Assembly: GCF_004010195.1 (NCBI RefSeq) | Contig: NC_057718.1 | Coordinates: forward strand, 100,134,806 to 100,196,409 | Direction: 5' to 3' | Source of the DNA: Chiloscyllium plagiosum | Lineage: Eukaryota | DNA: 61,604 bases | In this document: positions 5,841 through 57,752 of the stretch, piece after piece | Layout of the letters: each line of letters begins with the position of its first letter | Position numbering within the stretch: position 1 is the stretch's first letter | Translations under genes and position numbers: made by a program | The notes under the pieces: model-generated | The model's input: only the letters and a program-made list of their open reading frames with translations | Told to the model about the DNA's origin: nothing | The model's database searches: none

Positions 5841-6033
5841 GAAAAATGTGGTGCTGGAAAGACACAGCAAGCCAGGCAGCTCCCGAGGAGCAGGAGAATC
5901 GACGTTTCGGGCATAAGCCCTTCTTCAGGAAGCCCTTCTCCTGCTCCTCGGATGCTGCCTGGCCTGCTGTGTTTTTCCAGCACCACATTTTTCAACTCTG
6001 GTACTCCAGCATCTGCAGTCCTCACTTTCTCCT
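5841..6033. mobile_element. PLE fold-back fragment (family A) with 14-bp TSD
   Basis: AATTCACAAGAATA 5827-5840 / AATTCGCAAGAATA 6034-6047; inverted GTGCTGGAAA.../...TTTCCAGCAC arms. Confidence 0.9.
5897..5931 (-). ncRNA. Minimal type I hammerhead ribozyme motif (family A), intact core
   Basis: Minus strand UC-CUGAAGA-A-GGGC UUAU GCCC-GAAA-CGUC-GA; palindromic ACGU stem III, GUC triplet; stem I only 2 bp. Confidence 0.65.
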
Positions 6034-6182
6034 AATTCGCAAGAATACCAAGTCAAGGGGAAAACCAGCATTTATACTACATGAAAGGAGAGTGTTGATT
6101 GGTTGGCAAGTGATCTTTGATGGTAGAGGTGTTGTCATGAGGAATGTATGAATTAGAGTCCACTTGCCAACCATTCAGCACT

Positions 6183-6508
6183 CTGGATATAGGTTTGCTC
6201 ACTGAGCTGGAAAGTTCATTTTTAGACGGTTTGTCACCATACTAGGTAACATATTCAGTGAGCCTCTGGACGAAGCACTGCTGATGATTCCTGCTTTCTA
6301 TTTATATGTTTGGGTTTCCTTGGGTCCACCCAAGGAAACCCAAACATATAAATAGAAAGCAGGAAACACCAGCAGTGCTTCATTTGGAGGCTTACTGAAG
6401 CTGTTACCTAGTATGGTGACGAAACATCTGAAAATGAACCTTCCAGCTCAGTGAGCAACCCTATATCCAGTACCTTAAACTGAGCTACAAATCTTCTCAA
6501 AACTCGCT
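6183..6508. mobile_element. PLE fold-back (family C), 143-bp arms, 10-bp TSD
   Basis: Arms 6183-6325 and 6328-6470; tail 6471-6508; ATTCAGCACT at 6173-6182 and 6509-6518; both hammerheads decayed. Confidence 0.92.
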
Positions 6509-7820
6509 ATTCAGCACTTTTCCTTGATAAATATAAATGATGGTTTTCCCCTTCACTTAGCATTCTTGCAAATTGTTCTGATGAGTGCAGTAGGAAAAGA
6601 TTTGACAAGATGTATGTTTTACGTCAATGTTCAAGTTCTACTGTACCAGAAATGCACAGAAATAACAAGATGTCAATTTATGCCTTGCAAGTAAAATTAG
6701 AACAGAATCACATAGCTTCATCACTTTTCAATCTGTTCAAATACTTTTTTGACAACAGCATTTTCACAAAGTTAATAAGCATTAAAGATTAGGAAGCTTG
6801 CTAATCAGACACTGCCAAGAAATACATTGGAAGGCATAATCTTGTTAAACATTTAGGCATGACACTTTATGTTGCTGCTTCTCAAAGGCTTAAGTCAAAC
6901 TTCTGAGGGAACATAAAGACTGCATTTAGTTGCATATAATTCATTTTAACAATAGGCAAACAGCTTAAGCCACAAACAGAGAGAATAACAAATAGAGACT
7001 TAGCATAAGAAATAAATCTGCATACGTATGGATCAATGCAAGGTGAATTCAGAAGCGATTGAGAGGCAAAAAACATTCAAAGGCAGTGCAGATGATTGGA
7101 CCTTTCACTATTCACATTCCAAGCCCCCAACAGTTTTGGAGTGCAAGCTGTTAAAATAGTTCAAGTAGACGCTGTAACTGGAGTCAAAGCTAACAAAGAA
7201 TAGCTAACAATAGATCAGTTCTTTGAAAAATCTCAGAACATGATGAGCAAAATGTCAAATGGAGTGAATGCAAATGGAAAAACAAACACATCTAAGGCTT
7301 GCATGTCCTCACAAGAAACTCTATTGTGTGTAAGTCATGTTTCAATACGCAGAGTGTTTTGTGTTTTTCCGTGTCTTAACATTGTACTCTTCCACACTAT
7401 TCATTACCAATCAATTCAATATAAAGTAATTCCCAGTTAATGCAGTGCTGGGAATTTGGATGCTAAAATGGCAGAGGGTACTTTCAGGATTCTGTGAGAC
7501 AGACGGTTTCTCGATCCTGGAACACACGTGTAAGATTACATGTTTGTTTTTTTGGTAAACCAAAATCTAAGAGTGGGGCGTTCCGTCCTGGTTTGCTGTT
7601 TGAACTGATCCTCTATCTCAATGCCATATTCCCATTTTTTTACTGCATTCAGACTCCACCATCTGATACTGCAAGATTCAAACTAAGGTCCCAAGAGCAT
7701 TTCATGGGTCTTGGGATTAACAGCCCAGTGCTCATCCCACTCAGGCCACCACCTCTCCTGGAGAGTTTGAGTTTATGAGTGAGCAAAATGAACGTACTTT
7801 CATGGGATACATTCAGGCTA

Positions 7821-7912
7821 ATATTGAGAGTGTGTTGCTGGAAAAGCACGGCAGGTCAGGCAGCATCCCAGGAGCAGGAAAATTTGGGCTGGAGCCCTTC
7901 ATCGGGAATGAG
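7821..7912 (-). mobile_element. PLE family A fragment with 11-bp TSD
   Basis: CATTCAGGCTA at 7810-7820 and 7913-7923. Confidence 0.85.
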
Positions 7913-8129
7913 CATTCAGGCTAGCCATTAATAATGATTTTCGTGAGCTGCTACAATTGCTCATTGTCTAATGTAGCTTGCTCAACCTTCTCTGCCCAGC
8001 TGTGGCCAGAATATATGGAAGTGATGCTATGTTCTGGAATCTCTGGTATTGCAACTGACAGGTTTCTCACCTTGTGGATCCTAACGTGTGTGCGTATCTG
8101 TGTGTATGAGCCGATCAATAACAAGTGAG

Positions 8130-55242: not shown

Positions 55243-55254
55243 GAAACCATTTAA

Positions 55255-55555
55255 TGTGGAGGAGCCGGTGTTGGACGGGGGTGGACAAAGTTACAAATCA
55301 CACAACACCAGGTTATAGCCCAACAGGTTTATTTGGAAGCACTAGCTTTTGGAGCACTGCTCCTTCATCAGGTAGCTGGTGGGGCAAGATCTTAAGACAC
55401 AGAATTTATAGCAATTTTGCTATAAATTTTGCTATAAATTCTGTGTCCCATGATCCTGCCCCACTAACTATCTGGCGAAGGAGCCGTGCTCCGAAAGCTA
55501 GTGCTTCCAAATAAACCTGTTGAACAATAACCTGGTGTTGTGTGATTTGTAACTA
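55255..55555. mobile_element. PLE family B fold-back, 34-nt tail, 11-bp TSD
   Basis: AAACCATTTAA 55244-55254 / AAACCATGTAA 55556-55566; centre has TTGCTATAAATT x2; both hammerheads mutated. Confidence 0.9.
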
Positions 55556-56394
55556 AAACCATGTAAGGCGCTGGTCAGACCATACGTGGAACACGGTGAA
55601 CAGTTTGCATCACCTTATTTAAGGAAGATTTTCTGGTATTGGAGACAGTCCAGAGAAGGTTCACTACCTGTGTGTTGTCATTTGAGGAGAAGTTGAGTAG
55701 GCTGGGCCTGTACTCATTGGAATTCACAGAATGAGAGGAGAACCTGTTGACATGGATGGGAGTCTTGGGAATTGGACAGGGTAGAGGCAGAGAGGTTGTT
55801 TCCCCTTGTCGGAAAGGCTAGGACCAGAGGACATCATCTCAGATTAAGGAGTCTCCCATTTCAGCCAGAGATGAAGAAGAATTTATTCTTTCAGTTGGAT
55901 CTGTGGAATTCTTTATCGCACAAGGTTGTTGAGGCTAGGTCATTAAGCATATTCAAGGCCGAGAGAGATAGGTTTTTGATCAGGAAGGGAATCAAGGGTT
56001 GTGAGAAAAGTGAAGTTGAAGGTTATCAGATCAGCCATGAACTCAATGAATGGTGGAGTTGACTCAATGGGCTGAATGGCCTGCTTTTGTTCTTATGTCT
56101 TATGGTCCAGTCGCTACACAGTCCTGGGTTTTCAAACTCAGGTCTCCCTCTGCCTTCAAAAACCTTTTGAGGGTGAATAATGAGGTCCTTCTGAAGAGTT
56201 AATGGATAGATTCATCCATTGATGGAACAAGATGGAGAAATATGAAATGGAATGAACTGGTGTATCTGAGCTCTGAGTGAAGTGCTCAATGAATGTAGGT
56301 ATTTCACTGGACTATTTGTCACCCTGGCTCACTGCTGTGCTGTGTACAGATGGTCCTCATGTTATGTCACTCTGCTTGACATGGGTTTGTTTGA

Positions 56395-56536
56395 GCTGAA
56401 AATGTGTTGCTGGAAAAGCGCAGCAGGTCGGGCAGCATCCAAGGAACAGGAGAAACGACGTTTCGGGCATAAGCCCTTCTTCAGGAAACATTTTCAGCTC
56501 TGATCTCCAGCATCTGCAGCCCTCACTTTCTCCTCT
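56395..56536. mobile_element. PLE family A fragment, 13-bp TSD
   Basis: TGGGTTTGTTTGA 56382-56394 / 56537-56549. Confidence 0.9.
56453..56488 (-). ncRNA. Minimal hammerhead (family A), core intact but stem I poor
   Basis: C-CUGAAGA-A-GGGC UUAU GCCC-GAAA-CGUC-G. Confidence 0.5.
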
Positions 56537-57305
56537 TGGGTTTGTTTGAATGTTGTATATTGTCAGGGTATTTGCTTTGAATTAGATTGACATTTCCAGC
56601 CTTGCGTTGTTGCGTATGAATTGTGTGTCATTGCATGTCACAATGACCTGACATCAGGGAAAAGTAGCAGGGAAATTCAGAGGAACACGAGGTCTCGGTC
56701 CATTTAGGAAGAGACAGGCCCAGCCTCCCTTAGCTCCTTTATTGCCTTCTTCCCCTGGCCTAACCTCACCAAAGCCTTCCCTCCTTCTCTCTTTCCCCCA
56801 GTCTTGTCTCCTTCTCATAGCCTTCCCTCCTTTCCGCAGCCTTCCCTCCTTCCCCCAGCCTTGCCTCCTGTCCCCTATTCTTGCCTTTTGACCCCAGCCA
56901 TTCCCTTCTCCCAGCTTCTATTCTTAATCCTCACCGAAGGGCTCCATCTTGTGTCAGAGGCCGGTTACTGCAGGTGATGCTGGGACACAGCAGCTCTCTG
57001 CACCAAAACAACCTGGCCATCATATGGACATGAGTCAATCTAAAAATACAAGCAAGTGTATTTTTTAATTGTGTATTCTATTGCATTTGTTTTATATTTA
57101 GTGGTGTGTTTTGCTTTCCAAGTTATTTCAGTTAGGATTGCACAATGCTAAACAGACACAATACACTATATGATGTGGAGGTGCCAGTGTTGGACTGGGT
57201 GGACAAAGTTAAAAATCACACAACACCAGGTTATAGTCCAACAGGTTTATTTGGATGCACTAACGCTGCTCCTTCATCAGGTAACAGGTTGGACTATAAC
57301 CTGGT

Positions 57306-57752
57306 TTAGGGTGTAGGTTTGCTCGCTGAGCTGTAGGTTTGATATCCAGACGTTTCGTTACCTGGCTAGGTAACATCATCAGTAGCAATCTCCAAGTGAA
57401 GCGAAGCTGTTGTCTCCTGCTCTCTATTTATATCTTTCTCCTGGATGGGGTTCCTGGGGTTTGTGGTGGTGTCATTTCCTGTTCGTTTTCTGAGGGGTTG
57501 ATAGATGGCATCTAGATCTATGTGTTTGTTTATGGCGTTGTGGTTGAAGTGCCAGGCCTCTAGGAATTCTCTGGCATGTCTTTGCTTAGCCTGTCCCAGG
57601 ATAGATGTGTTGTCCAAGTCGAAATGGTGGGTTTTTTTCATCCGTGTGTATGAAAAAAAAAGCCACCATTTCGGATTTCTGGATATCAAACCTACAGCTC
57701 AGCGAGCAAACCTACACCCTAAACCTCAACCTGAGCTACAAACCTTGCGACC
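57306..57752. mobile_element. PLE family C insertion with GIY-YIG end, 10-bp TSD
   Basis: ATAACCTGGT 57296-57305 / 57753-57762; minus ORF HHFDLDNTSILGQAKQRHAREFLEAWH. Confidence 0.92.
57346..57385 (-). ncRNA. Minimal hammerhead ribozyme (family C), intact
   Basis: CUA-CUGAUGA-U-GUUACCU AGCC AGGUAAC-GAAA-CGUC-UGG: 7-bp stem II, ACGU stem III, GUC triplet. Confidence 0.78.

Follow-up and report, generated by a model that had tools for sequence, protein, structure and literature searches.

The window analysed here is a 61,604-nt stretch of Chiloscyllium plagiosum DNA (NCBI RefSeq assembly GCF_004010195.1, contig NC_057718.1, positions 100,134,806 to 100,196,409 of the forward strand), and all positions are counted from its first base. 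It contains many hammerhead ribozyme motifs, distributed over repeat families that we designated A, B, C/C', D and E. The motifs are very probably the ribozymes in the terminal repeats of endonuclease-positive Penelope-like retrotransposons (PLEs), whose dead, 5'-truncated insertions have been left behind. An initial annotation, made from the letters alone, had described minimal, dimer-type hammerheads in the terminal repeats of shark PLEs, and a comparison with the motifs of PMC4209133 confirmed this description.

The association of hammerheads with PLEs has already been published and these shark copies are further members, mostly dead; the locus is therefore ordinary for such a genome. Less ordinary is that the commonest family tends to begin just before the motif, and not at the cut site. 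The role of the hammerhead in PLEs and the origin of inverted insertions are open questions (PMC8557442, PMC11167929).

Hammerhead motifs and their families

A descriptor scan for CTGAnGA-(6-25 nt)-GAAA gave 20 sites in the window, 13 of which had a stem II of at least 3 bp. In 100 local dinucleotide shuffles, the same descriptor gave a mean of 5.55 sites, and 0.58 with stem II (maxima 15 and 3, respectively). Searches with family hidden Markov models, together with the arm list, yielded 33 arms that span the core (A 14, B 7, C/C' 5, E 5 and D 2, the E arms including a doubtful one at 53128), and a partial arm at 59787 comes on top of these. Repeat-derived arms make up about 11% of the called bases (6,635 bases). 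The "about 30 copies" of the initial annotation were thus real motifs in about the number claimed, but many of them are two inverted arms belonging to one insertion.

A stricter test for the core, a stem II of at least 4 bp, a palindromic 15.2-16.2 and NUH was applied to 31 positions. All of these features were present at eight, with C3 at 5928, 19968, 24394, 50780, 56484 and 57382 on the - strand and at 36198 and 50786 on the + strand. They are the same eight cores that had been named intact beforehand, where the low ends of the motifs were given. The other positions are decayed relatives from the same families; several were out of register by 1-4 nt and, when aligned properly, their cores were broken all the same.

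The CUGANGA and GAAA-NN-UH parts of the core are present in type I order. Helix II carries an extra base after A9 and the G10.1-C11.1 pair, and is paired over 4-7 bp in families A, B and C and over 5 bp in the best E copy. Its sequence is GGGC/GCCC in A, GGAG/CUCC in B, GUUACC/GGURAC in C and GGGUC/GACCC in E. The families therefore differ in stem II as first described, but E turns out to be a relative of A: its arms are detected by the family-A model with E-values of about 1e-9, and the two share downstream sequence. The loopless palindromic stem III was found as well (ACGU in A and C, AGCU in B). Helix I has 1-4 contiguous base pairs across the eight intact motifs, with 1 bp at 56484.

A coincidental match within ordinary repeats would be consistent with the Rfam search, in which the 48 matches up to an E-value of 1 included no hammerhead and none reached the gathering score, and with the folding predictions, from which the active fold was absent. 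However, the number of sites with stem II was well above the shuffle maximum, a single core is retained across families whose paired stems differ, and repeats of other animals hold the same motif with a covarying helix I. The latter was observed in a control set of 128 hammerhead motifs in 123 metagenome loci, probably animal DNA (non-shark families). Helix I lies outside the search pattern and covaries in 74 distinct flank pairs from these unrelated families; Watson-Crick pairs at positions 1-4 numbered 64, 66, 65 and 48, with shuffle maxima of 59, 50, 37 and 34, and helix I in these families measures 4-5 bp. As far as sequence allows, coincidence is refuted, and we consider it hardly conceivable. 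Several metagenome loci (L030, L037, L079 and others) contain head-to-head hammerhead pairs with short spacers, again of non-shark families. Three metagenome-assembled bacterial genomes (L124-L126) match the general hammerhead motif, possibly through contamination with animal DNA, and viral contigs gave no match to the family-A pattern.

Remnants of the reverse transcriptase (RT) thumb and of the GIY-YIG endonuclease were located by tblastn with RT-bearing relatives; they lie upstream of the motifs, on the same strand. The initial annotation had placed the hammerhead downstream of the GIY-YIG sequence on its coding strand, which proved correct for family A (16707-16531, -) and for C/C' (20078-20871, +; 57638-57312, -). 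The proteins nearest to the coding remnants come from carpet sharks (Stegostoma, Chiloscyllium and Hemiscyllium). Family C is preceded by a thumb and GIY-YIG remnant (20078-20640, +; 57638-57480, -) matching Poseidon-like proteins. In family A, the endonuclease remnant (16707-16531, -) and a linker remnant (61471-61602, +) both match proteins with a CX2-5CxxC linker, which marks Neptune and Nematis elements (PMC8557442). The linker cysteines of family A fall beyond the window; the linker is known from the A-type relative P0009, which has a CxxxxCxxC linker and is 83-86% identical to the linker remnant in the window. The CX2-5CxxC linker is absent from the C-type proteins P0001-P0006 and from 20078-20640, and A-type and C-type proteins share about 25% identity over the RT. 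On the relatives the Pfam GIY-YIG model scored 22.2 and 15.4 bits, below the curated cut-off of 22.6; the motif itself is visible in P0001, P0006 and P0009. Judged by these coding remnants, family A is Neptune-like and C/C' are Poseidon-like.

Two points weigh against extending the PLE assignment to the other families: no coding remnant was tied to family B or D within the window, and for E there was a single weak, decayed candidate (26484-26377, -). The claim of several PLE families is therefore supported by coding sequence for A and C/C', but not for B, D and E; judged from their architecture, the latter three are probably the same kind of element.

The E candidate (26377-26484) and another remnant at 32030-32122 (-) match the C-terminus of Neptune-like endonucleases, both in a very decayed state; the E candidate is followed, about 250 nt downstream, by a decayed E-like repeat. 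Decayed relatives of the upstream region of family D are present at 3781-3900, 31805-31921 and 32186-32340, and the relative at 31805 is nested in the tail of a family-A insertion. The endonuclease remnant of family A is interrupted at about 16302-16526 by a repeat of the short or long interspersed nuclear element (SINE/LINE) type.

Architecture of the insertions

Neighbouring copies often belong together as the arms of a single insertion and form inverted repeats of 25-143 nt. Target duplications of 10-15 bp flank part of the insertions: 12 of the 25 units scored at least 10, compared to 1.7% of random flank pairs (n = 294). Arm ends of family A, counted from C3, fall in two classes (about +81 to +96 and about +123 to +130), and of the 7 paired A insertions whose arms both lie in the window, 6 combine a short-end with a long-end arm; the seventh has its tail displaced by another insertion. 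Most arms are 85-135 nt long. The arms are retrotransposon stubs, often consisting of two inverted arms with a one-sided tail, the tail being the one known from published elements (PMC8557442, PMC3846280).

Family A contributes stubs and one long copy. Stubs are located at 7832-7912 (-, from -7, with a broken core and immediately flanked by 11-bp target duplications), 14828-14957 (+, from -3 to +126, with a mutated C3) and 46593-46727 (-, from -3 to +130, with stems II and III broken). The long copy (15894-16715, -) consists of the Neptune-like endonuclease remnant, the inserted repeat, a 3' untranslated region, a hammerhead (C3 at 16016, mutated G12) and the tail.

The other A copies are inverted. 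At 5832-6034, a short - arm and a long + arm (from +31) are flanked by a 13-bp target duplication; the - arm starts at -3 and carries an intact hammerhead (5897-5931, -, C3 at 5928, H17 at 5901). The insertion at 12222-12448 is decayed, with each arm starting at most 7 nt from the core and a 15-bp target duplication. The one at 24305-25252 extends across an N gap and has an exact 14-bp target duplication; its - arm holds an intact hammerhead (24363-24398, C3 at 24394), and its + arm, with C3 at 25125 and a broken stem III, served as the reference for read mapping. At 31104-31233 the + arm starts at about -9 and stem III is broken. A perfect head-to-head insertion with an exact 13-bp target duplication (50688-50913) contains two intact hammerheads on opposite strands (50749-50784, -, and 50782-50817, +). 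Exact target duplications also flank 56393-56534 (13 bp), in which the hammerhead at 56453-56487 (-) has an intact core and a helix I of 1 bp, and 59513-59637 (14 bp), which lacks the hammerhead, its arms starting at +40 and +46. At the edge of the window, 61155-61604 comprises an inverted terminal repeat (C3 at 61238, -, mutated G12) and the Neptune-like RT-endonuclease linker remnant, which continues beyond the edge.

In family B, a stub at 36185-36311 (+) has an intact hammerhead (36195-36229, C3 at 36198) and a 13-bp target duplication. Broken B copies are the inverted pair at 42304-42416, with both arms starting near the core, and the inverted insertions at 55255-55554 (two broken cores, 15-bp target duplication) and 58951-59106 (+ arm starting at most 5 nt from the core, 14-bp target duplication). 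A further inverted B insertion (57165-57787), from which the core is deleted, hosts the inverted C' insertion at 57308-57741. The latter has a 14-bp target duplication, the endonuclease remnant (57638-57480, -) and an intact hammerhead (57346-57385, -, C3 at 57382); its + arm starts at +33, 2 nt ahead of the cut site. Family C is represented by 19858-20823, in which an inverted terminal repeat with an intact hammerhead (19932-19971, -, C3 at 19968, H17 = U) is followed by the Poseidon-like thumb/GIY-YIG remnant and a terminal repeat, and by 6182-6507, an inverted insertion with two broken cores and a 10-bp target duplication. The inverted D element (5781-6620), with decayed cores at 5826 (-) and 6578 (+), hosts both an A and a C insertion. 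Family E consists of stubs at 30800-30891 (-, decayed core), 39159-39276 (+, with a short inverted arm and a mutated G12), 43743-43835 (-, broken stem III) and 45358-45445 (-, U16.1 missing).

Some details of these insertions are recorded here as observations. About 40 unrelated bases, including an A run, are present where the C' arms join (57638-57678). The intact hammerhead of 5832-6002 (-) is predicted to lie in the 37-nt loop of a 67-bp two-arm hairpin, and of all intact motifs, no other stays largely free of pairing with its own inverted arm (79% of this core is unpaired in the prediction). The family-A tail at 25200-25252 ends in a pyrimidine run followed by AG, with more AG sites after CTGAC-like motifs, which resembles a splice acceptor; in the shark RNA reads aligned to 24890-25290, no spliced joint was found at this tail.

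The short copies could also be a separate non-autonomous family (SINE- or retrozyme-like), derived from short masters that start at the hammerhead. The length of most arms would fit this, as would contigs with tandem units running from -4 to the long end, and animal retrozymes have been proposed as derivatives of these repeats (preprint 10.64898/2026.07.22.740005). However, no two inversion junctions in the window are alike, the short arms share subfamily variants with long, coding-linked copies, and no tandem array of hammerhead units was present among the 48 tandem-repeat rows of the window; tandem joints occur solely in contigs of outside sequencing runs. We regard short masters as unlikely. 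A retrozyme array was rejected as a candidate, as the window has no array of at least 2 units with complete hammerheads.

The 5' boundary of family A and cleavage

The 20 family-A arms were sorted by their start (for arms 31138 and 12361 this was set by eye). Ten start at -2 to -9, 4 reach at least 45 nt upstream and 6 start at +31 to +73. Compared to the downstream start rate, the clustering just before the core has a p-value of about 2e-7, for an interval (-2 to -9) picked post hoc. About 4 of the 7 B arms likewise start close to the core. Four E arms apparently do so too, for which there is no long E reference for comparison. Ends generated by cleavage were rejected as the main source of the stubs: a start at most 3 nt from the cut site was seen in 1 of the 20 A arms, and read depth is nearly flat across this site. 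The depth of RNA reads from shark read sets, mapped to 24890-25290, was 213 at 25115, 1,088 at 25129, 1,755 at 25150 and 2,021 at 25163; it stepped up around -4, in agreement with the starts of the arms, and changed little across the cut site (25152/25153). Loose ends at 25121 (-4) led into mixed AT-rich flanks in 161 reads (agreement 0.41) and 351 contigs (agreement 0.32), as seen among the 18 best supported of 1,087 loose ends. Tandem joints that connect the long end with -4 or -3 were found in 25 and 15 contigs of run X1, and among the 12 joint inserts listed, of 205 in total, 3 begin exactly at 25153.

In the mechanism that we propose, the GIY-YIG endonuclease cuts the target in a stagger, which is visible as the target duplications of 10-15 bp. 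Reverse transcription would then begin at either of two internal sites of the RNA (+81 to +96 or +123 to +130); the two end classes of family A are observed, while the priming mechanism is borrowed from anole Poseidon (PMC11167929). Each cut end finally carries one copy, one per start site, and the copies are joined head to head, an architecture that is observed. We infer that it arises by two primings or by fold-back; self-priming has been argued for inverted copies (PMC3846280). About half of the A arms stop 2-9 nt ahead of the core, so the templates of family A mostly held an uncleaved ribozyme. The element transcript would begin at -4, and the enzyme would often start on the 5' repeat copy and run off the end of the RNA, giving stubs of about 90-130 nt.

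The consensus of the initiator is YYANWYY. The -4 site reads TCATTCC (initiator-like, with the A at -4), helix I begins at -4 as well, and in Penelope the corresponding repeat contains an internal promoter (PMC2377424). Based on these three points, we give an even chance to -4 being the transcript start, with priming on the 5' repeat copy and run-off. A downstream promoter element like that of Drosophila Penelope (PMC2377424) was also considered, but is not counted as support, as the ACGT is misplaced by about 2 nt and matches poorly.

Several observations count against this placement of the transcript start. The most frequent start in the window is -3 (5 of the 10 arms), not -4. None of the five core-spanning C arms stops near the core, and family B stops there without an initiator consensus. 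Six initiator-like sites, including -4, and four ATT sites are present in the 235 nt upstream; such sites are common in this repeat, so the initiator match is weak support. The reads derive from an organism in which only about half of the words of the window recur. Capped 5' ends were not observed, and the mapped reads list no site where many molecules begin. A full-length element is absent from the window, hence the 5' end of a full copy is unseen. In the metagenome families, ends within 9 nt of the core were found in 13 of 86 copies, versus 10 of 14 core-spanning A arms (p = 4e-5), which argues that the start peak is specific to some families. Finally, the -4 site of family A is itself an ATT.

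This last point leads to an alternative in which the boundary is not an RNA 5' end, but a cut by the element's endonuclease at the ATT before the core (resolution of an intermediate) or the result of self-insertion. The anole enzyme prefers 5'-ATT-3' near the junction of the open reading frame (ORF) and the pseudo-long terminal repeat (pLTR) (PMC11167929), tandem joints from the long end to -4 do exist, and in the window PLEs nest within one another's repeats (A and C inside D, 5781-6620; C' inside B, 57165-57787). On the other hand, the ATT sites at -74, -216, -233 and +29 have no comparable peaks among the ends listed, solo stubs lie directly between target duplications (7832-7912), and family B stops close to the core without an ATT. 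We consider such a cut rather unlikely.

Taken further, placing the transcript start at -4 suggests a scheme that we put forward tentatively, as one possibility with the odds against it. The transcript of the Neptune-like element would start at the first base of helix I, so that promoter and ribozyme overlap; priming on the 5' repeat would generate the stubs of 90-130 nt; and an RNA dimer joined through the palindrome would serve as template for a dimeric RT-endonuclease. Such a dimer would present two antiparallel templates, which would explain head-to-head inserts with a short and a long end. If promoter and ribozyme do overlap, the genome would be a very large fossil record of the RNA start, the priming sites and rare cleavage. 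An abundant family with a sharp boundary and few starts at the cut site in any case permits a genome-wide count of the RNA species that were copied, and the finding made in vitro, that the template is uncleaved RNA, would be extended to a Neptune-like family in vivo.

The initial annotation had suggested that read-through transcripts of the locus could self-cleave, or cross-cleave between copies; as considered here, this would occur through dimers and affect present-day host RNA. Core, stem II and palindrome are kept in 8 of the 33 arms, and 3,788 RNA reads from a related shark align to family A. Furthermore, some cleaved RNA may have been copied, and a minority of templates may thus have been cleaved, since 25153 is the start of 3 of the 12 listed joints and a C' arm begins 2 nt short of the cut site. 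Against this, the motifs of the closest pair (50749/50784) are on opposite strands with their cores fully base-paired in a predicted hairpin of roughly 95 bp, so that they cannot dimerise from one transcript. Intact A copies on the same strand lie 5.7-26 kb apart, and helix I or III is incompatible between A, B and C. The remaining six intact cores were 31-79% unpaired in predicted folds, and the active hammerhead appeared in none of the 8 context folds and none of the 4 self-dimer folds. GUCGAC or AUCGAU, a further palindrome that overlaps the cut site at 25149-25156 and at equivalent A sites, is used for pairing by the predicted family-A self-dimer in place of helix III; such a dimer would be inactive.

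Six of 13 A arms have ACAU in place of the stem III palindrome, and its G is missing from about 29% of the RNA reads (retained in 1,240 of 1,755); CpG decay would be expected to produce such losses. The core was also not clearly better conserved than its flanks. In 13 of the 14 core-spanning A arms (7905 was excluded because of a deletion), substitutions were found at 4 of 143 core positions (2.8%) versus 43 of 598 flank positions (7.2%), with p = 0.056 and with a family model seeded by intact cores, a bias that favours the core. Without four polymorphic columns the flank value was 4.2% (p = 0.63). The RNA reads had no pile-up of starts at the cut site, for which they are poorly suited. No host gene was found in the 146 of 159 ORFs of at least 75 amino acids that were scanned, a scan which short exons would escape; the other ORFs were of low complexity or examined otherwise. 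The single Pfam match was a CR1-like RT fragment (28177-29010, -), and many segments of 200-500 bp in the window are LINE 3' ends and SINE-like repeats.

Published activities are low or dependent on protein. Monomers of minimal hammerhead ribozymes (min-HHRs) did not cleave and dimers cleaved weakly (PMC4209133), the anole hammerhead depended on the protein of the element, while hammerhead mutants remained capable of insertion (PMC11167929), and 1 of 9 Xenopus dimers cleaved (preprint 10.64898/2026.07.22.740005). Because the closest pair would form double-stranded RNA from opposite strands and the core is not clearly better conserved, cross-cleavage in this window is improbable and the proposal is weakly supported at best; a current effect of these copies on host RNA is likewise unlikely. 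The copies in the window decay as their flanks do. If the ribozyme matters at all, it would be in the RNA of the source element, as a weak cutter dependent on a dimer or on protein.

Comparison with known systems

The motifs resemble the min-HHRs of metazoan PLE pseudo-LTRs (PMC4209133) in their type I core, the extra base after A9, the G10.1-C11.1 pair, a short helix I (1-4 bp in the eight intact motifs, about 4-5 bp in the published type), the loopless palindromic helix III and the occurrence of several sequence families per genome. As described there, most are single motifs of truncated elements and some are opposite-strand pairs 100-700 bp apart. The stem II of 4 bp in families A and B is a difference. 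Sharks are not mentioned in the searched text and supplementary files of PMC4209133, and no paper was found that treats Penelope hammerheads of sharks or a clustering of 5' ends at the motif; this search covered the literature and not repeat databases, so the families may already be catalogued. The density, at 33 arms per 61.6 kb, is far above that of coelacanth and Xenopus, whose genomes have about 4,000-9,000 motifs each by a different way of counting (PMC4209133).

Like the endonuclease-positive PLEs of PMC3846280 and PMC8557442, the insertions have 5' truncations, an adjacent inverted copy, palindromic junctions, target duplications and a tail of 30-40 bp at one end only. Their target duplications measure 10-15 bp, versus 8-10 bp in the rotifer elements, and the available parts of these two papers do not mention that 5' ends accumulate at the leading edge of the hammerhead. 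The Anolis carolinensis Poseidon element PAc (PMC11167929) also has two internal RT start sites that define the tail, uncleaved RNA as the main template and no RNA ends at the hammerhead cut site. PAc is a Poseidon element with biochemistry, whereas the family with the sharp boundary described here is Neptune-like and known from sequence.

Animal non-LTR retrozymes (PMC7229834; preprint 10.64898/2026.07.22.740005), which have been reported from one chondrichthyan genome, are likewise short non-coding units with type I hammerheads and are related to Penelope repeats. However, retrozymes form tandem arrays, typically with canonical hammerheads (PMC7229834), whereas the copies in the window are solo or inverted stubs.

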